Assembly: GCA_964399425.1 (NCBI GenBank)
Contig: CAYNQR010000005.1
Span: 5,883-69,882 of the forward strand
Direction: 5' to 3'
Length of the DNA stretch: 64,000 nucleotides
Origin: an uncultured Dehalococcoidales bacterium
GTDB lineage: Bacteria; Chloroflexota; Dehalococcoidia; Dehalococcoidales; UBA5627
Numbering within the stretch: position 1 is the first letter of the stretch; every line of letters starts with the position of its first letter. The position numbers and the translations under genes are program-made. Below are positions 25,097 through 52,936 of this stretch, piece after piece. The notes under the pieces were generated by a model, which was not told the DNA's origin, made no database searches, and saw nothing but the letters and a program-made list of their open reading frames with translations.

Positions 25097-25099
25097 TCA

Positions 25100-28662: not shown

Positions 28663-28679
28663 TAGACAATTTCGTTTCT

Positions 28680-29276: not shown

Positions 29277-29303
29277 ATATCACTCCTTTTCCAGAAAACA
29301 TAA

Positions 29304-30113: not shown

Positions 30114-30117
30114 TTAA

Positions 30118-33072: not shown

Positions 33073-33189
33073 TTTTTTATTTCTCCTTTCATAGATTCTA
33101 ATTAAATAACACAAGTTGTTTAATAGGCATCCCCTCCTTTTTGACTGCTGACATTGATATAAATATAATTTAACGATTAACCTCAGAAT

Positions 33190-33576
33190 TTAGTCATTAT
33201 TCGATTGGCTTTCCCATTTACTTCGTCTTATAATTGCCCTTAATCTTGCTGCAAATATATTTTTATTGAAAGGTTTTATAATAAAACTATTTGCGCCGGA
33301 ATCCAGAGCTCTTTCGAGTAACTGGATATCTCTGTCATGGGAAACAAATATTATTGGAATGTCGTTATCCTCCCTAATTTGCTTAACCAATTCACAACCT
33401 GACATATCAGATAATTTTAAGCCTATAATTATTGCTTCATGCACTTCATTACTTCTTATATCATTAAGACATTTTTTACCTGAAGAATAAATTTCTACTT
33501 TACAATCGTATTGAAATATTTCAATAGCCTGTTTTATATCATCGATAGCATTGGCGTCGGTATCCGCAATTATCAT
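33190..33576 (-). CDS. single-domain response regulator (CheY-like receiver)
   Basis: Receiver hallmarks: LSDMSG (phospho-Asp), FVSHD and IIKPF. No output domain. Confidence 0.75.
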   Translation of the reverse strand: MIIADTDANAIDDIKQAIEIFQYDCKVEIYSSGKKCLNDIRSNEVHEAIIIGLKLSDMSGCELVKQIREDNDIPIIFVSHDRDIQLLERALDSGANSFIIKPFNKNIFAARLRAIIRRSKWESQSNND

Positions 33577-33905
33577 AACAATCTATCCTTAAATTCATTT
33601 GCGTAATCTATCTATTTTTATATATAAACCTGATATATTCATCGTAATATAAATAAGATTTTTAAAAGCCGCAGATGTCTCTTTCAGGAAGGTTGAGAAG
33701 ACTAATTAATTGCTTGCTATACTATAATTCAATATAACAAATGTATATTAATAAACCTGTAAATATAGCCAGTTATTAATAACAATATAGAAATATATAT
33801 TAATATAATTGAAATAATTTGCAGGGAAATTTGAGATTCAAGCTGAATGGGAGAGGAATTGTTACAATGACTTATTTTATATTCTGAAATTAGTATTTTA
33901 AATTA

Positions 33906-34592
33906 TCAACTTTGTCCATTGGTATTAAAGTAATAACCGATACCGGATTTAGTAATAATCACGTTTTTGTTACCTGTGCGAGATTCTATTTTATTACGAA
34001 TACGTTGAATGTGCACCCTAAGTGCATTTTCCTCCCCGGGGTAATAGTTGCCCCAAATGTTGTTATATAGATTATTATAGGCGACCACATTCCCCTTGTT
34101 AATTAAAAGTAGATAAAGAATTTGGGATTCAATATTTGTCAGATATATTATTTTCTCTTCATATATTAATTGTCTCTTGGATAAACTGAAATTATATAGC
34201 CCGATTTTTAGATATTCCTGTTCATACAGGTTTGTTTTCTTCATAACATTGTTAACACGGGCGAGAAACTCAAGATGGCGGAATGGTTTGGAAATATAAT
34301 CATTTGCTCCTAATTCAAGTGCTTTAACAATATCACGTTCTTCTCCTCTAACTGTCAATACAATAACTGGTACATTAGAAAATAAACGCAACCTTCTTAA
34401 GACTTCAAATCCATCGATATCAGGTAATCCCAAATCAAGAATAACGAGGTCCGGATTTTCTTTTTCAGCAGTATCTAGCCCCTCTTCACCAAATTTAGAT
34501 GATAATAATAATATGTCTGGTCGGCTGACCTTAAATATCAAAGTAACAATCTCAATGGATCCGAGATCATCTTCAATTATTAAGACTTTCAT
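33906..34592 (-). CDS. OmpR/PhoB-family response regulator (pair 1)
   Basis: REC (IIEDD, ILDLGLPDIDG, SKPF) plus a winged-helix C-terminus (ALRVHIQRIRNKIE). Adjacent to the kinase gene, with a 1-nt gap. Confidence 0.85.
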   Translation of the reverse strand: MKVLIIEDDLGSIEIVTLIFKVSRPDILLLSSKFGEEGLDTAEKENPDLVILDLGLPDIDGFEVLRRLRLFSNVPVIVLTVRGEERDIVKALELGANDYISKPFRHLEFLARVNNVMKKTNLYEQEYLKIGLYNFSLSKRQLIYEEKIIYLTNIESQILYLLLINKGNVVAYNNLYNNIWGNYYPGEENALRVHIQRIRNKIESRTGNKNVIITKSGIGYYFNTNGQS

Positions 34593-34593
34593 T

Positions 34594-37500: not shown

Positions 37501-37941
37501 GAAATACTCATTGAATAATCCCTTAAAGCCTTTAGATTTATCATCATAATAAAATAAACCATTCATGGTTCCAATCCAAAGAGTCTTATAACTATCCATG
37601 TAAATAGACCAAACATTGTTAAAAACATGATTATCCAAAGTACTTATTTCTTCAACATCACTACTATCATATTTAAATAAATAGCCATTTCCTCCGAACC
37701 ACAAATAACCGTAATGATCTTGTTCTATAGAATAAACAGGATTATCTGATAATACTTTATCTTTATCAAGTTTACTGAATACAACATTATTCTCAGACAA
37801 TATGGAATTAGCTTCTAATGAAATAATAGGGAAAGCACATAATGAAGCTAATAAACAAAATAGTGAAAATATAAATACAATTGTCACTGATTTTATTTTT
37901 ATCTTTCTTGAATTAATATTCATCTGTATAACACAAGACAT
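34594..37941 (-). CDS. sensor histidine kinase with extracytoplasmic double beta-propeller (Reg_prop repeats) and Y_Y_Y domain (pair 1)
   Basis: N-terminal TM, many roughly 47-aa repeats (LW(I/L)GT.NGL..FD...G.F), a YYY-type domain (YAYKLDGFDSDWQY...GEYIFRVIASNKDG), a second TM, H-box VHELKTPL and HATPase G-boxes. Confidence 0.85.
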   Translation of the reverse strand: MSCVIQMNINSRKIKIKSVTIVFIFSLFCLLASLCAFPIISLEANSILSENNVVFSKLDKDKVLSDNPVYSIEQDHYGYLWFGGNGYLFKYDSSDVEEISTLDNHVFNNVWSIYMDSYKTLWIGTMNGLFYYDDKSKGFKGLFNEYFDLTTVSDNHIRSIYQDSYQNLWVGTSNGLNLFDRETGIFTGYYFDPDNPDSISNNRIRSICEDRQGILWLGTANGLNSFDRETGVFTSYFFNPDNPDSISNNRIRSVYVDSRGILWLGTENGLNSFDRETGVFTGYFHDPDDPGSISDNYITAIYEDRFGKLWIGTENGFNSFDRETGVFTSYFYDSDNLSSIGNNSILAIYEDEQGILWIGTREGVYFIDPDKQHFNYRYDIPIKNNEIRSIYNFENTLLLGGLNSIMNFACNGRAIEELIDFKSLTGEIDAAIVYCIYMDKRGFLWVGTSQLGLLRIDMETFDYSIYNYEPLNPNSISNGTVRTMYQCPVTDLLWIGTNDGLCNFDYENNIFTRYNHNPDDSTSIIGDIINIIYGTSNNELWLGTNNGLDRYDTENGEFIHYFKEPQSFVEFIGCQVESIYEDSSNNLWIGTIDGLFKYNREEGNFTSYTIREGLSDNHILGIIEDNSGKIWVTTKNTINSISPDSNVINSYRFDHGLRGYINYRNSIAKNEEGAIFIGTTNGIFSFYPDKIEIDTYIPPVYIKDFHLVDGNPVSLDKPIEEVKEVTLAYSDNSFIINFIALDYSSQYNNMYAYKLDGFDSDWQYSGANQRIAKYTNIPGGEYIFRVIASNKDGIWNEEGASLIIIITPPFWQEWWFILFLIAVALLTVAAFIKFRTRSLFRHAQILEMQVSQRTAELDNKTLELQKEIHLLEKTEQKLADEIDNRIKYTRALVHELKTPLNPLVAASDYLVSSIREEPLLSFARSINTSAINLSDKIDILLDIARMEVGILQLEYSSVDIQGLLLEIYKNTKIEAEKNELNLLLEIDPDLPVIQCDEERIKQAILNLLNNAFKYTPRNGTVVIKAKKTQNIIISVIDTGCGIDDDEKKYIFKPYSRLNSERSRLSGLGIGLSLVKQTIELHKGRIWFKSQKGKGSVFSFYIPIKRPDVLDRTQEQ
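36859..37422. repeat. four tandem 141-bp units (47-aa propeller blades) inside the kinase gene
   Basis: The 42-nt block GGTAAATACTCCGGTTTCCCGATCAAACGAGTTAAGTCCATT is identical at 37099-37140 and 37240-37281. A copy at 36958-36999 has one mismatch, and a diverged copy sits at 37381-37422. Spacing is exactly 141 nt. Confidence 0.85.
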
Positions 37942-38358: not shown

Positions 38359-39042
38359 TCATGACGGTATAGATAATATATATCCTTGAGAAACCATAGT
38401 AAAGATATATTTAGGATTGGCAGGGTCTTCTTCTATTTTATTGCGAAGTCGTTTCATATATACTCTTATGGCTTCTTCGGAACCGGGATATTCCCTACCC
38501 CACAGAGCTTGAGCAAGTCTGTAATAAGTTACAACGGAATTGGCATTATTCATTAATTCGGCAAAGATTACGCATTCACTTCTTGTAAGAGAAATGTGTT
38601 TTTCGTTATATAATAATTCATGTTTGTAGGCATTTAACTGAAATTTTCCCTTTGTAAGAGAGGCTTTTTCAGCTAATATATCCAGTTTGTGTGTATTAGC
38701 TTTTATTCTGGCAATCAATTCCATCTGTCTAAAGGGTTTTACGATATAATCATTTGCTCCCAATCCTAATCCGGTAACTACATCCGCTTCTTCGCCACGG
38801 ATTGTTAAAATAATTACCGGCACATTTGAATATTGTCGTATTTGTTTTAGCACATCGAATCCATTAATATCAGGTAATCCAAGGTCAAGGATAACAATAT
38901 CCGGAGAAACTTCGTCCACCAATTGAATTCCTTCTTCTCCTAAACGTGTGGGTATAAACTCCGCCTCAGGCCAACATAACTTGAAGGTCATGGCTAATGA
39001 TTCCAGAATACGTTTGTCGTCATCAACAACAAGTATTTTCAT
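38359..39042 (-). CDS. OmpR/PhoB-family response regulator (pair 2)
   Basis: Paralogue of 33906..34592 (VVDDD, ILDLGLPDING, VKPF, AIRVYMKRLRNKIE). Confidence 0.85.
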   Translation of the reverse strand: MKILVVDDDKRILESLAMTFKLCWPEAEFIPTRLGEEGIQLVDEVSPDIVILDLGLPDINGFDVLKQIRQYSNVPVIILTIRGEEADVVTGLGLGANDYIVKPFRQMELIARIKANTHKLDILAEKASLTKGKFQLNAYKHELLYNEKHISLTRSECVIFAELMNNANSVVTYYRLAQALWGREYPGSEEAIRVYMKRLRNKIEEDPANPKYIFTMVSQGYILSIPS

Positions 39043-39083: not shown

Positions 39084-42000
39084 TCAGTTATTTACGGGAA
39101 TGGAAAAACCGAATGTACTTCCTTTATCTAGTTCGCTATCAACCCAGATATGTCCTCCATGCAATTCAACCAGTAATTTTGATAATGACAATCCCAATCC
39201 AAATCCGCCGAGATGTTTATCTCCTTCTGTTTGATGGTGAGAATCTTCAAATATATTATGTATTTTTTCCTTGCTTATACCACTTCCGTTATCTGCTACT
39301 TGAACTATCAGATTGTTATTAATTACATCTACTAAAATAACGATGCTTCCATTTCTAAAAGTATGTTTCAATGCATTATCGACAAGGTTATAAATAACCT
39401 GTACAATACGTTCTTTATCCATAATGACCAAAGGTAATTCTTCCGGAATAGAAAATTCCAAGGTTTTGCCTTCCGCCTCTATCAATAGGATTAAATCTTT
39501 CTTTAATAATGCAAAGAACTTGTTCAGGTGTACTTCCCGCCTTTTTAATTTCAGCAGTCCGATTTCACCTCTTGAAATATCAAGTAATTCTTCAATCCTA
39601 TGACTTAAACTGATAATGTCTTTATTAATACCCTCAGCAAGATCGATAAATGGATGAGATCGAGCTTGTGCCATCAGCATATCGTTAGTTAATTGAAGTG
39701 AAGTCAAAGGAGTTTTTAATTCGTGAACTAAAAATCTGCTGAATTCAGCTCGTTTATTCAGCTCTTTTTCAAGTTGGTCGGATTTACCTTTTAATAAATT
39801 CGTTCTTTTTTCGACCTGGTATTCAAGTTCCAGTGCCCGTCTGTGTAAAGTATGAGTTCTATACTTGATAACTAAATAAATCAGCCCAAATCCGATAATT
39901 ACCAAAGTTAATATAAACCACCATTGCTTCCAAAACGGTGTCTGAATAATGATTTTTAAAGAAATGCCTTCCTCGTTCCAGATCCCGTCATTATTAGAAG
40001 CGATAACCTTGAAAGTATACTCCCCATTTGGAATATTTGTATATGTTGCAAAACTCCTATCCGCATCGCAATAATGCCAATCATTATCGAATCCTTCCAA
40101 CATATAGGCATACTTATTATCCAGCGTCGAAGCATAATCCAAAGCGGCAAAATCAATTATGAATGTGTTATTGCTATAGGATAAAGTGATTTCGTCTGTA
40201 TCTTCAATCGGTTTACTTGTACTTAATCTATCTCCATTTACCCAAAAATCTGTAATTACAATAATCGGAATATTGGTATTTGTTTCGATTTCTGACGGGT
40301 TGAATGAAGTCAGACCGCTTAATCCGCCGAAAAACATCTTACCATCTTCGTTTTTATAACATGACCCCTGATTAAATTCATCTCCCTGAATGCCGTCATT
40401 TTTACTGTAATTTATAAATAATTCCGTATCAGGATTGAATTTCGATAATCCTCCATACGTGCCTAACCATAAATTTCCATCGTCGTCCTCGAGTATTCCG
40501 TTAATACGGTTATTTCTCAGCCCGTTTTTTATCGTATAATGGATGAAGTTGTTCGTATTTCTATCATATTTGTTAAGTCCGTATGTTGTACCTACCCAGA
40601 GGTTTTGCATGCTGTCTTCATATAAATATGTTATAGCATTACTGCTGATACTGTTGGAATTATTGTTATCAAAAAAGTAATGTGTAAATATTCCGGTTGC
40701 TTGATCATATTTGTTTAACCCATTGTTAGTACCGACCCATAAAACACCATAGCTGTCCTCTAAAATTGTCTCAATTACACTGCTGCTAATGCCGTACTTA
40801 TTATTCGGATCATAGAAAAAGTTTATAAATGTCTCGGTAAGAGGGTCAAATTTATCCAACCCGTAATCCGTTCCCAGCCATAGGTAACCGTAGCTATCTT
40901 GATAAATGAATCTAACCAGGTTGTCGCTGAGGCTATTTGAATCATTTGCATCATGCAAATAGAGAACAGATGAACCAGTATATAAATTATATTTCACAAG
41001 ACCATGTGAAGTTCCTATCCATAGACTCTCGTTACAATCCTCACATAGCGAAAATACAACACTAACTCTGACAAGAGTGTATTCCCGGGTTTCATAATCG
41101 TATTTATTCAACCCGTTATCTGTACCTATCCATAAATTGCCGAGGCTGTCCTCTAAAACAGACAATACCATATTATTAGACAGGCTATTGGTATTATATA
41201 ATTGTCTTTGATAATGTATAAAGGCATCACTGCGATGGTTGTATTTGTTTACGCCTCCGCTTAGAGTACCAAACCAGAGATTGTTTCCGTCATCTTGACA
41301 AATTGACCATATGGAGCGGTCACTGATGCTGTTAGAGATATCAGGATTGTCTATATAGCTATCGAATGTTCCGGTTTCGCTGTTGAATCTGTTCAGCCCA
41401 TTGTTAGTACCAATCCATAAGTAACGTTCTGTATCTTCCAACAATGTGTATATAATATTACTGCTGATACTCGCAGGGTTATTGGGGTCATAAGAATAAA
41501 GAGTAAATACCCCTGTTTGGTAATCAAATTTATTTAGACCGCTCGTCGTTCCAATCCAGAGTATTCCATTACTATCCTCGCAAATCGCCCTGATATTGTT
41601 ACTGCTAAGGCTGTCTGTATTGCCTGTTTGATTAAAATAGTGTCCGAAGGTCTCCGTTTCTCTATCGAATACATTCAGACCATTATTGGTGCCTATCCAC
41701 AGTTTATTATGGCTGTCTTCATATATTGCCCTGATATTATTATTGCTGATGCTGCCCGAATCATCTTTCCGATTCAGATAACAACTGAATATCCCCGTTT
41801 CTCTATCTAAAATATTTAAACCTTTATCGGTACCAATCCATAGAGTGTGGTTGCTGTCTTCATAGATGGAGAGAACTGTGTTGCTGCTAAGGCTACTTGA
41901 ATTATCAGGATTGTTTAAATAGCGGGTAAAAGTATCTGTTGTTCTATTATATCTGTTCAGCCCATTGATAGTTCCGACCCATAGAACACCGTCGCTGTCC

Positions 42001-42341
42001 TCATATAATGTTTTTATGTAACTGTCGGATAGCGATGTTTCATCATATGGATTATATCTGTAAATAGTGAATTTGGTGCCATCATACTTATTCAAACCGT
42101 CTTTCGTGCCGAACCACATATATCCGTATTTATCCTGTACGATTGCATAAACGGAATTTTGAGAAAGCCCGTTGTCGGTTGTGATGCTTTCGAACTTCAA
42201 CGGATAGCCGGAGGTTGCAGATATTCCCATTTCAGGAGTGAGAATAAATATACTTAAAATCAATATGGCTACAAAAATATAAATATATTTATTACCTAAC
42301 TTCACAGTATTCTCATTCCTCCCTTCCAAATAATATACCAC
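39084..42341 (-). CDS. sensor histidine kinase with double beta-propeller and Y_Y_Y domain (pair 2)
   Basis: Same architecture as 34594..37941: propeller repeats, YAYMLEGFDNDWHY...GEYTFKVIASNNDG, a TM, H-box VHELKTPL and HATPase motifs. Confidence 0.85.
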   Translation of the reverse strand: MVYYLEGRNENTVKLGNKYIYIFVAILILSIFILTPEMGISATSGYPLKFESITTDNGLSQNSVYAIVQDKYGYMWFGTKDGLNKYDGTKFTIYRYNPYDETSLSDSYIKTLYEDSDGVLWVGTINGLNRYNRTTDTFTRYLNNPDNSSSLSSNTVLSIYEDSNHTLWIGTDKGLNILDRETGIFSCYLNRKDDSGSISNNNIRAIYEDSHNKLWIGTNNGLNVFDRETETFGHYFNQTGNTDSLSSNNIRAICEDSNGILWIGTTSGLNKFDYQTGVFTLYSYDPNNPASISSNIIYTLLEDTERYLWIGTNNGLNRFNSETGTFDSYIDNPDISNSISDRSIWSICQDDGNNLWFGTLSGGVNKYNHRSDAFIHYQRQLYNTNSLSNNMVLSVLEDSLGNLWIGTDNGLNKYDYETREYTLVRVSVVFSLCEDCNESLWIGTSHGLVKYNLYTGSSVLYLHDANDSNSLSDNLVRFIYQDSYGYLWLGTDYGLDKFDPLTETFINFFYDPNNKYGISSSVIETILEDSYGVLWVGTNNGLNKYDQATGIFTHYFFDNNNSNSISSNAITYLYEDSMQNLWVGTTYGLNKYDRNTNNFIHYTIKNGLRNNRINGILEDDDGNLWLGTYGGLSKFNPDTELFINYSKNDGIQGDEFNQGSCYKNEDGKMFFGGLSGLTSFNPSEIETNTNIPIIVITDFWVNGDRLSTSKPIEDTDEITLSYSNNTFIIDFAALDYASTLDNKYAYMLEGFDNDWHYCDADRSFATYTNIPNGEYTFKVIASNNDGIWNEEGISLKIIIQTPFWKQWWFILTLVIIGFGLIYLVIKYRTHTLHRRALELEYQVEKRTNLLKGKSDQLEKELNKRAEFSRFLVHELKTPLTSLQLTNDMLMAQARSHPFIDLAEGINKDIISLSHRIEELLDISRGEIGLLKLKRREVHLNKFFALLKKDLILLIEAEGKTLEFSIPEELPLVIMDKERIVQVIYNLVDNALKHTFRNGSIVILVDVINNNLIVQVADNGSGISKEKIHNIFEDSHHQTEGDKHLGGFGLGLSLSKLLVELHGGHIWVDSELDKGSTFGFSIPVNN

Positions 42342-42723
42342 TCTTTTGAAGCTATTTTAATAGATATTACTACTTTGTAACACGCAAATATCGATTGTTA
42401 TGGCTATGTTATAGCTCAAATATTACCATATAAGTTGTTTAAAAATTCTATAGAGAAATTTTTTGAGGACGATAGAAGCTGGTATTTTCATTATTCTCGT
42501 AATATGTCTGTTGCCGGAACAAATATTAAAAATATATTAATCAGAATAATCTGAAATACGGTTGTTGAAGACAAGTTAATTGATTTGATAACTCACATAT
42601 ATTTATTATTTGTTTTCTTCTTTCATTCTATAACATATAGCAAATAAATTAACAAATGGAGGTGATGCCTATTCAGCATCTTTTTTAAAAATATCTGTAA
42701 TTTTTTAATAAGGAGTAAATAGC

Positions 42724-44505
42724 TTGAAAGAAAACAAGAATAAAACAACTGAAAAAGTTGAAAAAAAGCCAACTGAGGAAGTATCCAGACGGAACTTCCT
42801 GTTGGGTGCGGGGACTGTAGTTGCCGGCGGAATTATCGGCGGTGGCTTACTCGCGAGTTGTAAAGGTGAAACCACAGTTACAAAAACCGTTGAAATTCCT
42901 ACCACCAAAACGATTTCTACTACCGTACAGGTTCCGACAACTGTTATTTCGACAGTACAAGGTTCAGCATCTACGATAACTTCAACTAAGACAACTACTA
43001 TAACTGCCGAAGCTGATAAATTTTGGTTGCCTGCAAAGTGGGATTATGAGTATGACATTGTATGCATCGGTGGTGGCGGCGCAAGCGCGTCATGTGCAAT
43101 AACTGCTACTGATTTGGGTGCTAAATGTTTGATGTTGGAAAAGGCTCCCGAAATCTACCAGGGTGGAAATACCAGCGTATCCGGTGGTGAGGTGTATTCT
43201 CACCAGAATGTCGAGGATTTTGTAAAATATCTGACAGGTCTCAATGGCGCATATGTAATGGATCCGGCTTACGTCAGAAAAATGGCAGAGATGATGGCAG
43301 ACAACGGCAACTATATGAACACCACCCTCGATTGTTTGAATCTGACAGGTCTCGAAGTAACCTGGCGTCCATGGGAGGAATTTCCCGAATTAGAGGGCGT
43401 TGAGAATTCCGGTTGCTGGATTGTCGGCCCTAAAGGTGCAGACAGCGGTTACGGTAAACAGTTATGGGATCTCTATAAAGCTAACTTAGACAAAAGAAAT
43501 ATCGAAATATGGTTCGAATCACCGGCAAAGCACCTGATTCAAAATCCGCAAACAAAAGAAATCATTGGGGTAATTGCGGAGAAACAGGGAACCATTGTCT
43601 ATATTAAAGCCAAGAAGGCTGTGTTACTGGCCTGCGGAGGTTTTAATAATAATCAGGATATGCACAAGGATTTTCTGCACAGGATATCCGGTTATCCTAA
43701 GGGAACTCCGTATTCGACAGGCGACGGTATCAAAATGGGGCTTGAGGTTGGCGCAGACCTTTGGCATTGCGGCAACTCTGCCGGTCCCCTTCTTGAGTTT
43801 GTAGATACGGAAACCGGTATCAGGATGGCAGGCAGCCCCGGTTCAAATACAAATTGTATTCATGTCGGTGCCGACGGAACCAGATTTGTAAACGAGGCAG
43901 AAAGTCAGAGACATGGAAAAGTTATGCGCCACGGACAATGGGAAGCATATCCGACTCCATTACCTATCCATGCGATTTTTGACCATACGGCATTTAGTGC
44001 CAGAGCGTTTGGAGATACCACACAAAGGACATCCGGATTGGGGTGGAATCCTATTAAGGGTGTTTATCAGTGGAGTGCCGATAACAGTGCCGAAGTAGCA
44101 AAAGGCTGGATTAAGAAGGCCAATACAATCAGAGAGCTGGCAGTTCTTATCGGTAAAGACCCGGATATCCTTGAAGCAACAGTGAATAAATGGAATCAAT
44201 CCTGCGCGAACGGTGTCGATGAAGAATTCGGCAGGCCCGCAAACAGGTTGTTCCCCGTAGAAACCGCGCCGTATTATGCAATGGAATTATTCCCGACTTA
44301 CTACAATACACAGGGCGGACCTCGACGCAATGTAAAAACTGAGATTCTGGATCCGTTTGGAAATCCGATACCCAGATTATATGGTGGCGGCGAATGTGGT
44401 TCCCCATTCGCGCACCAATATAACGGCGGTATGAACAATGGCGATGCTATGGCTTTTGGACGTATTACAGCTCAGGAAGCCGTTGCATTGCAACCCTGGG
44501 GTTAA
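42724..44505 (+). CDS. FAD-dependent oxidoreductase, fumarate reductase/flavocytochrome-c flavoprotein-like (FAD_binding_2 type), Tat-lipoprotein
   Basis: SRRNFLLGAG followed by lipobox LLASC and a Thr-rich linker. Dinucleotide fold YDIVCIGGGGASASCA..E and a C-terminal NTQGGPRRN...IPRLYGGGECG. TTG start with AAGGAG SD. Confidence 0.8.
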   Translation: MKENKNKTTEKVEKKPTEEVSRRNFLLGAGTVVAGGIIGGGLLASCKGETTVTKTVEIPTTKTISTTVQVPTTVISTVQGSASTITSTKTTTITAEADKFWLPAKWDYEYDIVCIGGGGASASCAITATDLGAKCLMLEKAPEIYQGGNTSVSGGEVYSHQNVEDFVKYLTGLNGAYVMDPAYVRKMAEMMADNGNYMNTTLDCLNLTGLEVTWRPWEEFPELEGVENSGCWIVGPKGADSGYGKQLWDLYKANLDKRNIEIWFESPAKHLIQNPQTKEIIGVIAEKQGTIVYIKAKKAVLLACGGFNNNQDMHKDFLHRISGYPKGTPYSTGDGIKMGLEVGADLWHCGNSAGPLLEFVDTETGIRMAGSPGSNTNCIHVGADGTRFVNEAESQRHGKVMRHGQWEAYPTPLPIHAIFDHTAFSARAFGDTTQRTSGLGWNPIKGVYQWSADNSAEVAKGWIKKANTIRELAVLIGKDPDILEATVNKWNQSCANGVDEEFGRPANRLFPVETAPYYAMELFPTYYNTQGGPRRNVKTEILDPFGNPIPRLYGGGECGSPFAHQYNGGMNNGDAMAFGRITAQEAVALQPWG

Positions 44506-44594
44506 AACCTCTTAAAAAATCTATAAATTTATAGGGTTGAAAACTGCTGGTGAGGGTCTGAAATTTCAGATTCTCACCAGTATATATCTTGTAG

Positions 44595-45242
44595 ATGGGA
44601 AGGAAGGTGTTTATTATTTTGAAATTTCAAAAACAGAAAATAATATCTGCATCACTATCCGGTTTAATACTAATAGTCCTCGTCCTGTATGCTTTCTTGG
44701 TTGGTGGCGCTTCGATGAAAAAAGCGTCTGCAGGGGAGGAAGAAACTTTTACTTATGATATCGACAATTTAATGTCTTTTTATGTCGATTCACGTAATGA
44801 CGACGGCACATTATTATACGGTCATTATAGTACAAATGAAGGAAATTCAGAGGATATAACCTGTATTAGTTGTCATGATCTGGACACATTACGTAAATTG
44901 TATTTACTTTGCGATTCCGATGCACTGGAGCAGGCAAATGTAGAGATGTCTTCCTCAAACGAATTCTGTCTTGTATGCCATGGGTCATACGAAGAGTTGT
45001 CTGAGTTGACAGCCGATTACAGGGAGTTCATTGATTTAGAAAATAATATTGCAAATCCGCATGAATTCGGTGGGGGATTGACTGCAGAACATAAAGTTTC
45101 GTTATGCAGTTCTTGTCATACTTCGATACATCGCACTTCAAATGCTCTTTCCTCTGCTTATATTTTTTGCTGGGATTGCCACCATGCTGGGGTTTTTGAA
45201 TGTTACACTTGTCATGAGTTGGAAGAACATCAGTTGAAATAA
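44595..45242 (+). CDS. membrane-anchored pentaheme c-type cytochrome
   Basis: Five CxxCH motifs (CISCH, CLVCH, CSSCH, CWDCH, CYTCH) after one N-terminal TM. The start may be TTG 44619, which is better spaced from the SD. Confidence 0.8.
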   Translation: MGRKVFIILKFQKQKIISASLSGLILIVLVLYAFLVGGASMKKASAGEEETFTYDIDNLMSFYVDSRNDDGTLLYGHYSTNEGNSEDITCISCHDLDTLRKLYLLCDSDALEQANVEMSSSNEFCLVCHGSYEELSELTADYREFIDLENNIANPHEFGGGLTAEHKVSLCSSCHTSIHRTSNALSSAYIFCWDCHHAGVFECYTCHELEEHQLK

Positions 45243-45477
45243 GCCAGAATTTAACGTTTTATGGTAATTTAGCCGCGTTTTCTAAGAAAAAATAGCTGAA
45301 TTTAAACCATATTTAATTTTAGTTATGAATAATGTTAGCAGAAAATATAATGGTTGTTAAGATATATTTGATCTCTAAGCTAGAGGACAACAGGCAAGTA
45401 TATCCACAATTTTGTTGATAAGTTATAAGCAAGTTAATTGAGTAAAATCGATTATAACAAAGGGTAAATAATTAGAT

Positions 45478-46485
45478 ATGTTTTGGAAAGCTATCAAACA
45501 AATATATCGAATACTAGTCTCCATGAAATTTGCGCTGGTAATACTGGTAGTGCTGGCAATATTCATGATAGCGGGGTCGTTTTTATCGAGCGACCTGTTT
45601 ACGAGTTCATATCTGTTTGCTGTTTTATGCATACTGCTTCTGTTATCGTTGTTTTCGTGCTGCATAAAGCGAATAATCGGTGTCTTTCACATTATAAAAA
45701 ATACCGATAAGAAGAGTATCCGTGCATGGGTAAGCTATTGCGGCTCGCCTGTGATGCACATAGGGATACTGCTGATAATTGTCGGGATGTTTATGAGTCC
45801 GTTCACCGGTTTTAGCGATACGGCAAAACTGACTGCCGGACAAACGTATGTAGAAGACAATGCCGGGTTCGAAGTAAGGCTTGCCTCCTTTGAAATTGTC
45901 TATGGTGAAAACCATCAAATCAGCGACTATATCAGTACTGTAATAGTAACAAATGATGGAAAAGAGGTATTAACCAGGGAAATAACGGTAAACAGTCCTC
46001 TTATATACAAAGGGGTGAAGTTTTATCAATCGACATATGGCTGGGCGGCAAAAGTAAAGATAGCAGAAACGGAATCTTCGGAAGTGCTTCTGGACAGTGT
46101 ACTGAAGATGCCGGTGTTCTCCAGCGGCATCGGGGATGTTTCATATTCGATATACGACAAGGAAACCGGAACAACCATTACCCAGCGTTTTATGGTAATT
46201 CCCGACCAGGTGTCGAAAGGCACGGTGAACAATCTGAGTCCTTTGCCGAACAATCCGGCGCTCTTTTTCATACTGTACTCTGATTCAGAGATAGCGATTA
46301 TAAAAGATGTAGCTCTGGGAGAAAGCGAAGATGTCGGCGGGCTGATCGTCTCGTTCGAAGGTCTGGAATATTATACCGGGCTGGAGGTCGGCAGCAAACC
46401 TGAACTGCCGGTAGTTTTTGCGGGGTCACTAATATTCATTGTCGGTTTGATAATAGTGTTTTATGTACGTAAATCGACCTGGTAA
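45478..46485 (+). CDS. ccsB: cytochrome c biogenesis protein CcsB/ResB (System II)
   Basis: ResB-like N-terminus (FWKAIKQIYRILVSMKFALVILVVLA), a large extracytoplasmic loop and a C-terminal TM. Adjacent to ccsA. Confidence 0.7.
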   Translation: MFWKAIKQIYRILVSMKFALVILVVLAIFMIAGSFLSSDLFTSSYLFAVLCILLLLSLFSCCIKRIIGVFHIIKNTDKKSIRAWVSYCGSPVMHIGILLIIVGMFMSPFTGFSDTAKLTAGQTYVEDNAGFEVRLASFEIVYGENHQISDYISTVIVTNDGKEVLTREITVNSPLIYKGVKFYQSTYGWAAKVKIAETESSEVLLDSVLKMPVFSSGIGDVSYSIYDKETGTTITQRFMVIPDQVSKGTVNNLSPLPNNPALFFILYSDSEIAIIKDVALGESEDVGGLIVSFEGLEYYTGLEVGSKPELPVVFAGSLIFIVGLIIVFYVRKSTW

Positions 46486-46503
46486 TATTTTGGAGGTTAC
46501 AGA

Positions 46504-47316
46504 TTGAGTGTTGAGTTTATCTTGTTTTTTATAGCGCTGGCGCTATACCTGTTGAGTTTGGTTGCCTTTGTGAGCGCATTCATTTTCACAAAGAGCAAAG
46601 GTACAAAGGCGGGAGTCTGGTTAACTCTTGGAGCGGTGCTGATAAACGGAACGTCCCTGGTTTGCCGCTGGATAACTTCGGGATATCCGCCGCTAAGCGG
46701 TACCTATACGACATTATCGCTTTTCTCGTTCTTCATGGGGTTGTTATTGTTATTCTTTATTGTTAAACGCTGGGGAAAGACAGAGATACTGGGCACCGGT
46801 ATTATATCGGTGATTTTGATAGCAATGCTGGTTGCTTTTATCAATTACAGTGAAGCGGGCTCTCTCCCGGTAGCACTCAGGAGTTACTGGTTATTCATTC
46901 ATGTCCCGACCGCTATATTCTCATATGCTCTATTTGGAGTAGCGGCGGTATGCGGGGCGCTTTATCTGCTGAAAAGCAAAAAACAGGGTGAGGAATCGAG
47001 CGAGGAAAAGGCTCGCGATCTCGATGTTGTAGATAATATGGTATACCGCTCTGCAGCCGGCGGGTTTATTCTGCTTACGATCGCGATTGTGACCGGTGCG
47101 GTATGGGCGGAGAGCGCCTGGGGAAGCTACTGGAGTTGGGATCCGAAAGAGACATGGAGCCTGATTACATGGTTTGTATACGCCATATTCCTGCATACCA
47201 GGTTGGTAAAGGGATGGAGGGGTAGGAAGGCAGCCATAGTAGCGATAATAGGATTTGTAGCCGTGATATTCACCTATTTTGGAGTCAACCTGATAGGCGG
47301 ACTGCATTCATATTAA
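46504..47316 (+). CDS. ccsA: cytochrome c biogenesis protein CcsA/ResC (System II heme handling)
   Basis: Trp-rich heme-handling motif WGSYWSWDPKETWS and a polytopic membrane protein. TTG start with GGAGG SD. Confidence 0.85.
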   Translation: MSVEFILFFIALALYLLSLVAFVSAFIFTKSKGTKAGVWLTLGAVLINGTSLVCRWITSGYPPLSGTYTTLSLFSFFMGLLLLFFIVKRWGKTEILGTGIISVILIAMLVAFINYSEAGSLPVALRSYWLFIHVPTAIFSYALFGVAAVCGALYLLKSKKQGEESSEEKARDLDVVDNMVYRSAAGGFILLTIAIVTGAVWAESAWGSYWSWDPKETWSLITWFVYAIFLHTRLVKGWRGRKAAIVAIIGFVAVIFTYFGVNLIGGLHSY

Positions 47317-47331
47317 TAATGGAGAGGGAAA

Positions 47332-47922
47332 ATGCAAATTGAGGAAGAATTGTCGCAGGTATTGCCGCAGAAAGAAACGCTGTTGACGATAGGCACGTTC
47401 GATGGAGTTCACATAGGGCACAAGTACCTGATAGCTCAACTGAGAGCACATGCCGGGAGTCAAAACCTGCAAAGCGTAGTGATAACCTTCCGTCAGCCTC
47501 CGCGAACGGTATTGTCATCTCATGCCAATCTGACGATATTGACCGCTATCGATAAAAAGATAGAACTCATAAAGAAAGAAGGAGTAGATATAGTAATACC
47601 ATTGTCATTTACTCCTGAGGTAGCAGAAATGAGCGCGCGGGAATTTGTCGGTTTGCTGAAAAGGCATCTAAGGATGAGAGGACTGGTAGTCGGATATGAC
47701 TTTGCTCTTGGAAGGAACAAGGAAGGCGATTATGAAGAGCTTTGTAAAATAGGCAAAGAGCTTGATTTTAACGTAATCGAAGCTTATTGCAGAAGGATAC
47801 GCGGAGAAATTGTAAGCAGTACGGCTATCAGGAAAGCGTTGACCAGCGGGGACAAAGAAAGAGCTTTCGACATGTTAGGCTGGGGACGGGAACTGGAAAT
47901 ATCACGGAGTTGTACTTGTTGA
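47332..47922 (+). CDS. FMN adenylyltransferase (FAD synthetase) domain only; RibF homologue lacking the riboflavin kinase domain
   Basis: IGTFDGVHIGHKYLI nucleotidyltransferase motif and ISSTAIRKAL. The ORF ends at 196 aa, where the riboflavin kinase domain of bifunctional RibF would begin. The 63-nt downstream spacer has no kinase coding. Confidence 0.7.
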   Translation: MQIEEELSQVLPQKETLLTIGTFDGVHIGHKYLIAQLRAHAGSQNLQSVVITFRQPPRTVLSSHANLTILTAIDKKIELIKKEGVDIVIPLSFTPEVAEMSAREFVGLLKRHLRMRGLVVGYDFALGRNKEGDYEELCKIGKELDFNVIEAYCRRIRGEIVSSTAIRKALTSGDKERAFDMLGWGRELEISRSCTC

Positions 47923-47985
47923 GAGAGCAATAATCGACATGAAATAAACATGTCAAGAATTAAGAAATGTTTTATTGGAGGTTAA

Positions 47986-48897
47986 ATGAACATAGTACTA
48001 CAAACTAACTGGGGCTGGGAAATAGCGGTTTACCTGTTTTTAGGAGGTTTATCGGCCGGGATTCTCTGTGTCTCAGCTATAATTAACCTTGTTACTAAAG
48101 ACAAATTTAAAGATACGATAAGATTTGGGTCGTGGGCTGGGGTAGTTCTTTTAACTATAGGTGTCTTTTTGTTATTACTGGATGTAGGGCTGCCAATGCG
48201 TGCCATCATATTATGGCAAAGTTTCATACATCTGGACTCATGGATGGCTTTTGGAGCCTGGTTCTTGTTTGTCGGCATAATCATTTACGGCATTTATGCT
48301 CTTTCTAATACAACGTTGGTAACAAGTAGATTTAAATTTTTGTTGAAATTTAGAACGGCATTGGCTGTAATAATAATACCGTTATCGTTAGGCATAGCTA
48401 TCTATACAGGATTGTTATTAGGTGTTTTATATCCTCATCCGTTATGGAATACATGGTGGTTACCGGTACTATTTACGGTATCAGCGCTCGATACGGGTGT
48501 GGTATTTGTTATCGGTTATGCGGTTTTAGGCGAACCAAGCATGAAGGACGGATTAATCCGCCTGAAAAGAGTATTGGAAGTATCAACGGTTGTGTTGATA
48601 CTTTTAGAAGGGGTAATACTGACGCTCTATCTGACAACGGTAGCATCATCGGGAGGAGTAGCTGCTGCATCGGTCGAGATATTGACGTCAGGTATACTCA
48701 GCCAACTGTTTTGGATTCTCCTGATTGGATGCGGTTTAGCTTTACCACTAATAATCAGCGTTCTTTTACTTATACGCCATGATTTAGCCGAAAAGACATG
48801 GTATTTTCTACCGATGCTGGGAGTATCGTTGTGCCTGGTCGGAGGTTTTACTTTAAGGTATATAGTACTCATGGCGGGGCTGCCGATACATGTATAA
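47986..48897 (+). CDS. NrfD/PsrC-like polytopic membrane subunit (putative quinol-interacting)
   Basis: About 8 TM segments over 303 aa, immediately upstream of and overlapping a Tat-targeted 4x[4Fe-4S] protein. The assignment rests on context and topology rather than on a recognised motif. Confidence 0.6.
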   Translation: MNIVLQTNWGWEIAVYLFLGGLSAGILCVSAIINLVTKDKFKDTIRFGSWAGVVLLTIGVFLLLLDVGLPMRAIILWQSFIHLDSWMAFGAWFLFVGIIIYGIYALSNTTLVTSRFKFLLKFRTALAVIIIPLSLGIAIYTGLLLGVLYPHPLWNTWWLPVLFTVSALDTGVVFVIGYAVLGEPSMKDGLIRLKRVLEVSTVVLILLEGVILTLYLTTVASSGGVAAASVEILTSGILSQLFWILLIGCGLALPLIISVLLLIRHDLAEKTWYFLPMLGVSLCLVGGFTLRYIVLMAGLPIHV

Positions 48898-48913
48898 TGG
48901 AGGAATGAATAAC

Positions 48914-49930
48914 ATGAAAGAAAAAGATATTTCCAAGGAAAATTCACAAGCAGTGATGACCCGCAGGGAATTCGTAGGGGCGGTTGGAGCTGGAATCGGC
49001 GCCATATGTATACTGGGAGCGCCGGGTATTGTGGCTGCTGCAAAAGAATCCGATACTCGTATAAGATCCATTTTGTACGATTCGACAAAGTGTATCGGGT
49101 GTCATACCTGCGAGAAAGCCTGTAAAATAGTTAACAATCTGCCGGGAAGTGTCGGAACTGTTAATAATACAACCGGTACGACAGTTGAAACAACTTCCAC
49201 AACAACATCACAAACAACAACTGATACTATTGTTGTCGCTGAGTCAACTCCGGCTCCGACAGTGACTGTTGGCGGGGGACTTGATGCAGATACATGGTTG
49301 AAAGTGACTGTTGAAGAGAAAACACTGTCAGGCGAGGGGCAAGGTTATTTATGTGCCCGTCTTGCCTGTATGCACTGCGGTTCATGCGCCCAGGTGTGTC
49401 CATCAAAGGCTTTGGTGCAGAGGGAAGACGGAATAGTAACAATGGACCCCGCGAAATGTATCGGATGTCGCTATTGTTACGGGGCATGTCCCTTTGATAT
49501 TCCCAGGTACAGCGAAGACGGATCTATGAGGAAATGCATTATGTGCTATGGGCTGGTAGATGAAGGCAAAAAGCCTGCTTGTGTGGAAGCCTGTCCGACC
49601 AATGCATTAACGTTTAGGTATAGAGACGAGCTTGTAAGGGATGGGAAGGAACGTGTTTCCGAACTTGTAGAGGAGGGTTATAGCGATGCCTATTTATATG
49701 GAGAGAAGGAGCTTGGCGGAACTCCCTTGATGTATGTTCTGCCGCACTCATACGGCCTATACGGTTTGCCGAAGCTGCCGTTGGAAGCGCAGAAACCGGT
49801 AACATGGAAGGATTTTACAATACCTGTTGGTATAGTTGCCGGTTTGGCTGCCCTGGCTTTTGGAGGAATCACTTATATCAAGAACAGGGGAGAAAAGGTA
49901 GTTAAAGAGGGAACTTCAAAAGACAAATAA
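48914..49930 (+). CDS. Tat-exported 4x[4Fe-4S] ferredoxin-type subunit (NrfC/HybA/DmsB-like) with Thr-rich insertion and C-terminal TM anchor
   Basis: TRREFVGAVGAG Tat motif with an AAA cleavage-like site. Cys groups CIGCHTCEKAC, CMHCGSCAQVCP, CIGCRYCYGACP and CIMC...CVEACP. C-terminal TM IPVGIVAGLAALAFGGITYI. The tracked ORF starts at 48890, but the ATG at 48914 is better spaced from GGAGG. Confidence 0.8.
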   Translation: MKEKDISKENSQAVMTRREFVGAVGAGIGAICILGAPGIVAAAKESDTRIRSILYDSTKCIGCHTCEKACKIVNNLPGSVGTVNNTTGTTVETTSTTTSQTTTDTIVVAESTPAPTVTVGGGLDADTWLKVTVEEKTLSGEGQGYLCARLACMHCGSCAQVCPSKALVQREDGIVTMDPAKCIGCRYCYGACPFDIPRYSEDGSMRKCIMCYGLVDEGKKPACVEACPTNALTFRYRDELVRDGKERVSELVEEGYSDAYLYGEKELGGTPLMYVLPHSYGLYGLPKLPLEAQKPVTWKDFTIPVGIVAGLAALAFGGITYIKNRGEKVVKEGTSKDK

Positions 49931-49964
49931 ACGACGCAGTATAATCAATCGTATATCAATAGAT

Positions 49965-49995
49965 AAAAAGGGAAATGCAAGATATTTCCCTTTTT
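49965..49995 (+). terminator. intrinsic terminator after the flavin/cytochrome operon
   Basis: AAAAAGGGAAAT...ATTTCCCTTTTT: a 7-bp GC core extended by an A/T run, located 35 nt after the stop. Confidence 0.7.
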
Positions 49996-50026
49996 AGTTA
50001 ATATTGAGTCATAAAAAGAGGTAAAG

Positions 50027-51223
50027 ATGGTCTTATCGAGTATAGAAGAAGCAATCAAGGATATAAAAGAGGGCAAGTTCGTTATCATAGTCGATGACGA
50101 AGACCGCGAAAACGAGGGCGACCTGGCGATAGCCGCTGAAAAGGTATCCACCGAAGCTGTCAACTTCATGGTGAAGCACGCTCGCGGATTGGTATGTTTA
50201 CCCATAAAAGGTGAACGGCTGGATGAACTGGCAATCCCGATGATGGTATCGCATAACACATCGAAGTTTACCACTGCATTCACGGTATCGATAGAAGCCA
50301 AGCATGGAGTCACCACTGGTATATCGGCGAAGGACAGGGCAGAGACGATAAAGGCGGTCATAAATCCGGAAACCAAACCGTCTGACATAGCTCGTCCCGG
50401 GCATATATTTCCGTTAAGAGCCAGGGAGGGCGGGGTACTTGTCAGGGCAGGGCATACCGAAGCGGTAGTGGATTTGGCGAAGATGGCGGGGTTGTATCCG
50501 GCCGGCGTCATTTGTGAAATCATGAGTGAAGACGGCTCGATGGCAAAGCTGCCGGAACTGAAAGAAATCGCCGACAAATTCGGTATAAAAATAGTCAGCA
50601 TAGCCGACCTGATAACCTACAGGCGCCGGCATGAAAAGCTGGTAAAGCGTGTAGCTGAAGCGAAGTTGCCGACCCGCTACGGTGAATTCAGGATAATCGC
50701 TTATAAGAGCGACATGGATGCCGACCGGCATGTGGCGCTGGTGATGGGTGATATAGAAAACGATGAGCCTGTGCTGGTGAGGGTGCACAGCGAATGTCTT
50801 ACGGGAGATGTCTTCGGCAGTATGCGCTGCGACTGCGGGGAGCAAATAGACATAGCTTTACAGATGATAGCCAGGGAGAAACGAGGGGTGCTTTTATATA
50901 TGCGTCAGGAGGGGAGAGGTATCGGTCTTCATAACAAGATATGCGCATATGAATTGCAGGATAACGGACTGGATACAGTTGAAGCCAACCTCTCGCTGGG
51001 GTTTCCGCCGGATTTAAGGGATTACGGCATCGGGGCGCAGATACTTAACGATTTGAAGCTGAATAAAATAAGAATGCTTACCAATAACCCGAAGAAGGTC
51101 ATCGGGCTTGAGGGGTACGGACTGGAAGTGGTTGAAACGGTACCGATAATCATCAAGCCTAATCAATACAACAAGCGGTATCTGGAAACGAAGAAAGAAA
51201 AGATGGGGCATATACTGGAATAG
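50027..51223 (+). CDS. ribBA: bifunctional 3,4-dihydroxy-2-butanone-4-phosphate synthase / GTP cyclohydrolase II
   Basis: DHBP synthase N-half ([18 protein letters not shown]) and GCH II C-half ([27 protein letters not shown]). Confidence 0.9.
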
Positions 51224-51316: not shown

Positions 51317-52749
<1,433 letters not shown>

Positions 52750-52862
52750 AGGCTCGATACAACTTTGTGCTACATTCCGTAAAAAAACACCAGAAAACGG
52801 TAAAGCAGTGGGTGTCCGGGGTGGTTTCGGGGTAGGGGAGTGGGGCGTTTTGTGGCTAAAAG

Positions 52863-52936
<74 letters not shown>

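Follow-up and report, generated by a model that had tools for sequence, protein, structure and literature searches.

A putative respiratory locus of an uncultivated Dehalococcoidales bacterium combines an exported flavoprotein with a conserved Nrf-like backbone

Introduction

The closest described architecture to the gene cluster which we analyse here is that of nrfABCDEFG of Escherichia coli, and the closest described counterpart of its catalytic head is the Cgr1/Cgr2 pair of Eggerthella lenta. The cluster consists of seven genes at positions 42724-49930 of a 64-kb stretch of DNA from an uncultivated Dehalococcoidales bacterium; this whole stretch is referred to below as the window. In the E. 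coli system a periplasmic catalytic subunit, the pentahaem NrfA, is fed by the soluble pentahaem cytochrome NrfB, and the chain also includes an iron-sulphur (FeS) protein with four clusters, exported through twin-arginine translocation (Tat), and NrfD, a membrane protein with eight transmembrane (TM) segments. The maturation genes nrfEFG, for a System I accessory lyase, stand in the same string. A precedent for both the role of NrfBCD and the embedding of maturation genes has been described (PMC12285233). In E. lenta, Cgr2, a reductase with a Tat signal and the flavin adenine dinucleotide (FAD)-binding domain FAD_binding_2, is encoded beside Cgr1, a membrane-anchored multihaem cytochrome of Pfam family PF14537 which has been likened to NapC/NirT; no ccs genes, no gene for a flavin mononucleotide (FMN) adenylyltransferase (FMNAT) and no NrfD or FeS genes have been described in the cgr cluster (PMC5953540). 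Systems of this type have an adjacent transcriptional regulator and many paralogous flavoproteins, and Cgr2 needs one or more [4Fe-4S] clusters.

Several other systems share individual parts with the cluster. FccA (flavocytochrome c3) and UrdA of Shewanella have the same FAD fold as its flavoprotein; the two are respiratory reductases of the periplasm. They receive their electrons from CymA, which is of the NapC/NirT type, and not from an NrfBCD-type module. HybA, FdnH and HmcB are Tat-exported FeS proteins with four clusters and a C-terminal TM segment. In Hyb and Hmc the FeS protein is paired with a haem-free membrane subunit of the NrfD family, and the Hmc pair is linked to a periplasmic multihaem cytochrome. 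Synthase genes lie within or beside the operon of a periplasmic reductase in nrfHAIJ of Wolinella, where NrfI is of the CcsBA type and dedicated to a CxxCK site, and in napFDAGHBC-ccm of E. coli. Within the same order as our organism, HupSLX-OmeAB-RdhAB of Dehalococcoides mccartyi forms an outward-facing, Tat-dependent chain with the membrane partner OmeB and exchangeable catalytic subunits. Cultured Dehalococcoidales are obligate organohalide respirers which have neither quinones nor cytochromes (PMC10772276).

Results

Seven open reading frames (ORFs) were found on the plus strand between 42724 and 49930. Their domain content, assigned with Pfam and NCBIfam, is as follows.

42724-44505, plus strand: Tat-exported, lipid-anchored FAD flavoprotein of the fumarate reductase/KstD superfamily, 593 amino acids, predicted catalytic subunit (FAD_binding_2, 1.1e-35)
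44595-45242, plus strand: N-terminally membrane-anchored pentahaem c-type cytochrome, NrfB homologue, 215 amino acids (five CxxCH motifs; TM segment at residues 16-34)
45478-46485, plus strand: ResB/CcsB-like subunit of a System II cytochrome c synthase, short form, 335 amino acids (PF05140, 1.1e-28, 100.8 bits against a cutoff of 24.6)
46504-47316, plus strand: CcsA (ResC-type), haem-handling subunit of System II (TIGR03144, 238.3 bits against a cutoff of 187.6)
47332-47922, plus strand: monofunctional FMNAT, RibF N-terminal domain only, 196 amino acids (FAD_syn, 1.7e-42, residues 13-165)
47986-48897, plus strand: NrfD-family integral membrane protein, 303 amino acids, eight TM segments, presumed quinol-interacting or anchoring subunit (PF03916, 8.1e-33, 114.8 bits against a cutoff of 25.8)
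48890-49930, plus strand: Tat-exported 4x[4Fe-4S] ferredoxin-type subunit of the HybA/FdnH/HmcB type with a C-terminal TM segment, 346 amino acids (four Cys motifs; TRREFV)

The cluster thus contains the proteins which a first-pass annotation of the window had listed, including the five CxxCH motifs and the eight hydrophobic segments. The locus appears to be built like nrfABCD-EFG of E. coli, with a Cgr2-like flavoprotein in the place of NrfA, System II in the place of NrfEFG and an FAD synthetase added. It is a new combination of known parts and not a new kind of system. We read the cluster as a respiratory locus on the chromosome of an uncultivated Dehalococcoidales bacterium, organized in two layers, a substrate-specific head and a conserved backbone, which together would work as an Nrf-like chain; we give this reading a probability of about 0.55. 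A module of the NrfB/NrfD/HybA type joined to such a flavoprotein, to System II and to a monofunctional FMNAT in Dehalococcoidales was not found described in our literature search, which was short on subscription journals, and the literature searched likewise contained no description of a flavin-reductase, NrfD or ccs locus of this combination in Dehalococcoidia.

The departures from each model system are clear. In comparison with E. coli Nrf, the catalytic subunit is an FAD flavoprotein instead of the pentahaem NrfA, the FeS subunit resembles HybA/FdnH, C-terminal TM segment included, and not NrfC, a general System II synthase replaces the System I accessory lyase, and a gene for FMNAT has been added. 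Whereas NrfB is soluble, the cytochrome is anchored in the membrane; it lacks the motif for haem 1 of NrfB and has an extra haem at the C-terminus. In comparison with the Cgr pair, the cytochrome is NrfB-like and the host belongs to another phylum. No Cys-cluster motif of the kind that Cgr2 would lead one to expect is evident in the flavoprotein, although none was looked for; its 11 cysteines are at scattered positions. Unlike HybA/HybB, FdnH and HmcB/HmcC, which serve hydrogenase, formate dehydrogenase or cytochrome c3 networks and are usually quinone-reducing, the FeS and NrfD-like proteins stand here beside a flavoprotein. HupX of the D. mccartyi chain is described as having four FeS clusters and a single TM segment, as our FeS protein has, but that chain has no cytochromes, is quinone-free and ends in corrinoid dehalogenases in place of flavoproteins.

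The cytochrome was compared with several families. Its CxxCH motifs are at residues 90, 125, 171, 192 and 203, and among the ORFs of at least 80 amino acids in the window it is the only one with more than one CxxCH. Gene callers start it at Met41, which yields a protein of 175 amino acids and loses the TM segment; the long form is backed by hydrophobic N-terminal segments in its relatives. A full-library HMMER search (E up to 0.001) returned a family of 426 cluster representatives, mostly of about 200 amino acids, usually with six haem motifs and in many cases with a lipobox; the clade to which the window protein belongs is without the first motif. Cytochrom_c3_2 (PF14537), the Pfam family of Cgr1, was matched by 91 of 92 family members (23.5 bits against a cutoff of 25 for the window protein itself), which agrees with the resemblance to Cgr1/Cgr2 pointed out earlier. 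Alignment of the family profile with E. coli NrfB by hhalign covered 125 columns at a probability of 97.2% (E 4.5e-11), and each of the five haem motifs of NrfB fell in register. The matches of the profile in PDB were NrfA, MtrA (6r2q) and NrfB (2ozy, 2.6e-8), and the Pfam NrfB-like model was matched by only 7 of the 92 members.

Two other assignments of the cytochrome were considered and rejected. For a quinol dehydrogenase of the NapC/NirT/NrfH/CymA type, hhalign against E. coli NapC covered 16 columns at 69.5%, Cytochrom_NNT had no Pfam match in the window cytochrome and was matched by 3 of the 92 family members, and the match to NrfH (2j7a_C, 9e-4) extended over about 34 profile positions. 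For Alternative complex III (ActA/ActB/ActC), the ActA chains were matched at 3e-3 and 0.025, and the FeS protein lacks a fused molybdopterin-like domain. Judged from these alignments, the cytochrome is a predicted membrane-tethered electron wire of the NrfB type and not a NapC/NirT quinol dehydrogenase.

In the membrane module, the NrfD-like protein shares 25% identity with E. coli NrfD over 317 amino acids (E 7e-9), as against an E-value of 0.43 for HybB, and found no match in PDB either as a single sequence or as a two-sequence profile. The FeS protein has 16 cysteines in four cluster motifs, and its best matches are FdnH (1kqf_B, 1.8e-37) and HybA (31% over 339 amino acids, E 9e-38), with NrfC behind them (29% over 273 amino acids, E 9e-24). 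Its top NCBIfam matches, HmcB, FdhB and HybA, are all below the cutoff (178 against 420 bits for HmcB, 148 against 263 for HybA). The scores do not reach orthology to NrfD (TIGR03148, 67.1 against 347.6 bits) or to NrfC (TIGR03149, 109.6 against 377.6 bits). Between its first and second cluster motifs the FeS protein has a Thr-rich insert (residues 85-130; window 49142-49279) in which Thr and Ser make up 46%.

The flavoprotein has an N-terminus which suits an exported lipoprotein: SRRNFL at residue 21 is followed by a hydrophobic stretch, a lipobox (LAS directly before Cys46) and a Thr/Ser-rich linker of about 60 residues (47-105; window 42862-43038; 41% Thr and Ser), which forms a tether after the lipobox. 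It may be that the Thr/Ser-rich stretches of this protein and of the FeS protein are glycosylated spacers suited to the Dehalococcoidia envelope. A twin-arginine motif is present at the N-terminus in 72 of the 95 members of the flavoprotein family and a lipobox-like site in about a third, and from the former we conclude that the family is extracytoplasmic. The location proposed by the first-pass annotation is thereby upheld, and the possibility of a cytoplasmic KstD-like enzyme, which it had named as a refutation, fails on this point.

By its fold the flavoprotein is about as close to dehydrogenases as to reductases. The AlphaFold (AF2) model has a predicted local distance difference test score of 87.9 overall, with averages of 84-99 for the blocks from residue 111 onward, and Foldseek matched it about equally to UrdA, KstD/AcmB, cyclohexanone dehydrogenase (CDH) and Fcc3. 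Family profile scores for Fcc3 (309 bits) and UrdA (297 bits) are slightly higher than those for KstD (292 and 222 bits), and UrdA and Fcc3 are also the best PDB matches by sequence and by profile. However, the substrate-binding residues of these reductases are replaced: in the alignments His365, His504 and Arg545 of Fcc3 correspond to Gly, Asn528 and Tyr566. Asn528 is kept in 80 of the 95 family members and Tyr566 in 87. The site of Fcc3 Arg402 corresponds to a conserved (R/K)396-His397-Gly398, with the alignment ambiguous at R396-H397.

None of the characterized enzymes which we tried can be equated with it. For a flavocytochrome c fumarate reductase (Fcc3/FccA), TIGR01813 scored 144.3 bits against a cutoff of 285.45, and the fused tetrahaem domain of that type is missing, since there is no CxxCH in the 593 residues or in any of the 95 family members. 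For UrdA there is no Pfam match to FMN_bind, and the motifs HHT-MGG and NRLGG read YNTQGG and QYNGG. For KstD the scores were 169.7 against 789 bits (PRK12844) and 141 against 788 bits (PRK07843); the likeness in fold is real and is no better than that to UrdA and Fcc3. All NCBIfam equivalog cutoffs are missed widely, the top match being the 3-ketosteroid-delta-1-dehydrogenase model PRK12844 (7.7e-50). Active-site residues and model cutoffs together indicate that the flavoprotein is neither a fumarate nor a urocanate reductase. Its sequence does not fix the direction of catalysis.

The division into head and backbone comes from related contigs, in which three neighbouring genes also have to be considered.

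38359-39042, minus strand: OmpR/PhoB-type response regulator, likely regulator of the flavoprotein gene (Response_reg and Trans_reg_C)
39084-42341, minus strand: sensor histidine kinase of 1085 amino acids with Reg_prop beta-propellers and a Y_Y_Y domain (Pfam), divergent from the cluster
50027-51223, plus strand: RibBA (riboflavin synthesis), a conserved syntenic neighbour which marks the fixed chromosomal position of the cluster (Pfam, NCBIfam)

The order kinase/regulator, flavoprotein, cytochrome, resB, ccsA, FMNAT, nrfD, FeS gene and ribBA is kept in L003, a 497-kb ENA contig (ERZ21831104 ctg97213l), and in L091, and in L009 up to the end of the contig, so that the co-conservation suggested earlier has been found. 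Identity to the window is 47-87% for the backbone proteins of these relatives and no more than 36-44% for the cytochrome. For the flavoprotein it is 76% in L003 and 34% in L009, and in L091 this protein is fragmented. The sensor kinase is 66% identical in L003 and 36-43% in L009, whose flavoprotein is also a different paralogue. Since in L009 the backbone nevertheless retains 69-73% identity, so that flavoprotein and sensor diverge on a conserved backbone, the catalytic head and its sensor seem to be exchangeable at a fixed chromosomal site. Some close homologues of the flavoprotein stand without the backbone, at one locus with only a neighbour of 175 amino acids (P0005) and at another alone (P0006). 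RibBA is adjacent and 93-94% identical in L003 and L091, and in L003 ribH flanks the cluster as well.

Some of the genes are broken in the related contigs. In L091 many short ORFs take the place of an intact flavoprotein gene (2400-5151) and both resB and nrfD are split, while in L003 (14456-17073) the FMNAT and FeS genes are each in two pieces. These breaks could mean that the head gene has truly decayed, or that the long-read assemblies contain indel errors.

A second lineage is represented by L005/L006 (10001-21710) and L093 (2716-8972), whose flavoproteins are 44-70% identical to that of the window. In these loci the flavoproteins are linked to an 11-haem cytochrome, a full-length bifunctional RibF and TatA, and L005/L006 additionally have a tetrahaem cytochrome, a cytochrome b and CcmE/F/A/B of System I. 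As the same functional categories recur from non-homologous parts, the maturation and cofactor genes appear to be organized with the reductase system and not to be there by accident. This recurrence is the best evidence in support of a functional link between reductase and maturation. L005 also encodes a second, distant flavoprotein paralogue of 564 amino acids.

The synthase genes have the features expected of System II. In ResB the TM residue His94 is invariant in three orthologues (69-70% identity in L003 and L009), and CcsA has the WWD motif WGSYWSWDPKETW with His133, His231 and His268 invariant in its clade. All haem motifs of the cytochrome are canonical CxxCH, in contrast to the CxxCK site of NrfI, so ResB/CcsA has the look of a general synthase and may be the only one. 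About 17 members of at least 52% identity make up the small and isolated CcsA clade, after which identity drops to 44-46% against Desulfobacterota and Firmicutes; in a profile scan of genome contigs the best among the matches listed was 44% identical (Lachnospiraceae), and an alignment scan of metagenome contigs with ResB gave one distant match only (21% identity). Neither an FMNAT nor an NrfD gene lies beside ccsA in any of the 80 other genomic ccsA loci among the matches listed, and a flavoprotein match was found in one of them (L052, 28% identity). L092, with a CcsA 52% identical to ours, is also without FMNAT or NrfD neighbours. The FMNAT has the same length in L009 and L091 (73-87% identity). 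A bifunctional RibF was rejected for this protein: it has no Flavokinase domain, and RibF equivalogs were matched over the N-terminal half only and below the cutoff.

Among the proteins of the 64-kb window that were scanned, no thiol reductase of the CcdA/ResA type, Tat component, riboflavin kinase or haem synthesis gene was detected, which does not agree with the earlier description of the cluster as self-contained. Thiol-reduction partners such as CcdA/ResA may be encoded elsewhere in the genome or may be dispensable in a strict anaerobe. No FMN riboswitch or other Rfam element was found at the gathering threshold in the cluster or upstream of ribBA.

Four further elements bear on transcription.

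42342-42723, no strand assigned: AT-rich divergent control region of 382 bp between the sensor kinase and flavoprotein genes
44545-44582, plus strand: hairpin with a 17-bp stem directly after the flavoprotein gene, the strongest in the cluster (-27 to -31 kcal/mol, z -6.2)
45243-45477, no strand assigned: AT-rich gap of 235 bp, long enough to hold an internal promoter (structure not significant, z -0.6 to -1.7)
49964-49996, plus strand: A/U-flanked terminal hairpin that resembles a terminator and is bidirectional in form (-20.5 kcal/mol, z -4.4; the sequence is kept in L003)

The divergent region contains a direct repeat, TGTTATGGCT/TGTTATAGCT, at 42396-42416 with a start-to-start spacing of 11 bp. 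The geometry of TGTTATGGCT/TGTTATAGCT fits a site of the OmpR/PhoB type, and a 10-mer in two copies may also be a chance match. A scan for sigma-70 promoters gave no more matches than the shuffled expectation. The kinase/regulator pair adjoins the flavoprotein gene in L003, L009 and L091. The hairpin after the flavoprotein gene is a candidate attenuator, terminator or mRNA-stabilizing element; L003 has a hairpin of similar strength but unrelated sequence at this place, and L009 has none. Its presence in the window and in L003 fits a separate control of the head, whose gene looks separately tunable. The gap before resB measures 235 bp in the window as against 51-76 bp in the relatives, and from resB to the FeS gene the spacing is tight (18, 15, 63 and -8 bp). 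A strong terminator had been described at the end of a single cluster: the terminal hairpin is real and is conserved in L003, but the strongest hairpin is internal and the cluster may be more than one transcription unit.

The window is chromosomal and encodes ThrRS, IF3, DXS, PGK, PGM, TIM, MiaA and DapF. Proteins which bear the label 'MAG: Dehalococcoidales bacterium' share 92% identity with its PGK. Apart from one NCBI contig, exact copies of the cluster proteins were found only in the Logan assemblies of SRR10178537/8. Right after ribBA, at 51497-52936, there are an IS110-family transposase, an integrase-like ORF fragment without a Pfam match and a tRNA-Arg(tct). The ribH gene, present after ribBA in L003, is gone from the window, so that synteny breaks there.

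Discussion

We hypothesize that the head of the system is an exported FAD enzyme, probably under the control of the adjacent sensor kinase and response regulator and paired with the NrfB-type cytochrome in the manner of Cgr2/Cgr1. According to this model, the two-component system would induce the flavoprotein, and the backbone would comprise the NrfD-family protein, the outward-facing 4x[4Fe-4S] protein of the HybA/FdnH type, ResB/CcsA and FMNAT. Electrons would come from a donor in the membrane (menaquinol, provided that the organism has it), enter the NrfD-like protein and then pass through the four FeS clusters and the five haems to FAD, and the terminal acceptor would be an external organic compound which is neither fumarate nor urocanate. 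ResB/CcsA would attach haem to the cytochrome, and FMNAT would supply the FAD with which the flavoprotein is loaded in the cytoplasm, ahead of its export by Tat. An electron path of this kind had been proposed in the first-pass annotation; it is plausible and has been strengthened by the homology of the cytochrome to NrfB and by a membrane subunit which is nearest to NrfD. The direction of flow and the use of quinol, together with the formation of a complex, the role of FMNAT and the regulon, are what we infer.

Several observations weigh against this two-layer respiratory reading. The fold of the flavoprotein matches KstD-type dehydrogenases as well as reductases; the NCBIfam equivalog cutoffs for NrfC, NrfD, HmcB and HybA are all missed; and the nearest characterized relatives of the FeS subunit, FdnH, HybA and HmcB, belong to donor-side, quinone-reducing complexes. 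Cultured Dehalococcoides have neither quinones nor cytochromes (PMC10772276), and the lack of quinones makes quinol as the donor uncertain for Dehalococcoidales. RibBA is as syntenic as the rest of the cluster, so conserved adjacency alone is no proof of shared function. FMNAT may be the general FAD synthetase of the cell, sitting near rib genes. Finally, with a strong hairpin behind the flavoprotein gene and a gap of 235 bp in front of resB, the genes may form two or three transcription units.

Could the electrons flow in the opposite direction? The exported flavoprotein would then be a dehydrogenase or desaturase resembling KstD, AcmB or CDH, and electrons would pass through the cytochrome, the FeS protein and the NrfD-like protein into the quinone pool, as in HybOABC, FdnGHI and Hmc. 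KstD enzymes use catalytic tyrosines, and a nearly invariant Tyr566 stands at the position of Fcc3 Arg545. The top NCBIfam match, the place of KstD, AcmB and CDH level with UrdA and Fcc3 in Foldseek, and the affinity of the FeS subunit to the donor-side FdnH, HybA and HmcB, with which it has the C-terminal TM segment in common, likewise speak for such an electron-input module. However, the KstD matches are far under their cutoffs (170 against 789 bits), the family profile ranks Fcc3 and UrdA over KstD, and the membrane subunit is nearer to NrfD than to HybB. Moreover, the characterized Tat-exported members of the superfamily named in the literature surveyed are reductases, and the host order consists of strict anaerobes which respire with external reductases. 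We therefore regard this alternative as unlikely, although it fares best of those considered.

Another explanation is that separate units are merely juxtaposed: an inducible cassette of the flavoprotein, with or without the cytochrome, general System II genes, a flavin-biosynthesis neighbourhood (FMNAT, ribBA and, in relatives, ribH) and an NrfD/FeS pair which serves some other periplasmic enzyme, all brought together by the gene order of a compact genome. The internal hairpin and the gap before resB would suit such an arrangement, as would the position of ribBA and ribH around the cluster in L003, the flavoprotein being swapped or degraded while the rest is retained, and its close homologues without a backbone; in E. 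coli the general ccm operon likewise merely abuts nap. On the other side stand the tight spacing from resB to the FeS gene, the position of the only c-type cytochrome of the window next to ccs, and the fact that an NrfB homologue is exactly the expected partner of an NrfCD-type pair. The second lineage, in which the same functional categories co-localize from different parts, also argues against it, and we think that mere juxtaposition is quite unlikely.

Perhaps the backbone, with its NrfB-like cytochrome, HupX/HybA-like FeS protein and NrfD/OmeB-like membrane protein, is instead the cytochrome-containing counterpart of the quinone-independent organohalide-respiration chassis of Dehalococcoides. 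As an outward-facing protein wire it would receive its electrons from a periplasmic donor enzyme or, through the membrane subunit, by a route without free quinol. The flavin reductases which it feeds would be interchangeable, each with its own regulation, and their genes would lie both at this locus and at other places in the genome. System II would then be the only cytochrome c maturation system of the cell, and FMNAT would serve solely to load FAD ahead of Tat export. We hold this reading to be very unlikely. If true, it would amount to a new respiratory mode in Dehalococcoidales, with organic C=C acceptors in place of organohalides.

The earlier suggestion of a self-contained, portable island, through which a host otherwise without cytochrome c maturation and FAD synthesis would acquire both, is highly improbable. 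In its favour are the IS110 transposase, the integrase-like fragment and the tRNA-Arg at a distance of 1.5-3 kb downstream, the small size and isolation of the CcsA clade, the fact that no other CxxCH protein is encoded in the window, and the lack of cytochromes in cultured Dehalococcoides (PMC10772276). Against it, the seven genes (GC 0.38-0.47; GC at third codon positions, GC3, 0.34-0.53) are within the range of the flanking housekeeping genes, the cluster occupies the same position beside ribBA in L003 and L091, the mobile-element remnants lie beyond ribBA and not around the cluster, the ccsA loci listed elsewhere do not carry the combination, and without the CcdA/ResA, Tat, riboflavin kinase and haem synthesis functions not found in the window the locus would be unable to work alone in a naive host. 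The presence of maturation genes within the cluster, to which importance had been attached, is also less unusual than it seemed, since embedded or abutting maturation genes (nrfEFG, NrfI, nap-ccm) and secreted flavin reductases with cytochrome partners are already known.

The reading of the locus as an Nrf-like chain with an exchangeable head has several consequences. It suggests that uncultivated relatives within Dehalococcoidales respire non-halogenated organic acceptors by means of exported flavin reductases which are wired by a c-type cytochrome. The NrfD-like and FeS proteins would be a concrete candidate for the missing membrane module that feeds Cgr1-type cytochromes in gut Eggerthellaceae and others. 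The co-localization of reductase, cytochrome, maturation and FAD-synthetase genes in two lineages from non-homologous parts provides comparative evidence that cofactor maturation is jointly organized with the enzymes it serves. Lastly, a variable head with co-diverging sensor kinases on a conserved backbone offers a way of matching substrates to enzymes.

Other observations in the window

GC and GC3, compared with the window housekeeping genes, gave no compositional evidence of recent transfer. An anomaly in GC (0.53) and AT skew at 12-14 kb is explained by the gene at 12757-14514, which encodes an Ala/Glu/Lys-rich repetitive protein of 585 amino acids, probably a coiled coil, with a single C-terminal TM segment and no Pfam match.

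A putative H2-sensing regulatory set followed by a hydrogenase occupies 496-9789. An [FeFe]-hydrogenase large-subunit domain fused to HisKA/HATPase_c (1573-3522) has a Sigma54_DBD protein (496-1572) on one side and a sigma-54 activator (3506-4864) on the other. The [NiFe] hydrogenase is at 7766-9789, and its FeS/NAD-binding subunit of 793 amino acids (5385-7766) has an N-terminal response-regulator receiver domain.

At 23657-37941, on the minus strand, we found a second respiratory-type locus. It encodes a molybdopterin oxidoreductase of 998 amino acids with an AhtL-like first domain, a four-cluster FeS beta subunit with a CarboxypepD_reg domain, a protein of 198 amino acids without a Pfam match, two B12-binding radical SAM proteins and a membrane protein of the DUF4405/cytochrome b561-like type. 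A separate Reg_prop/Y_Y_Y kinase belongs to this locus, as do a regulator of the OmpR type and a single-domain receiver, so that the region from about 24 to 50 kb appears as a pair of sensor-controlled reductase loci.

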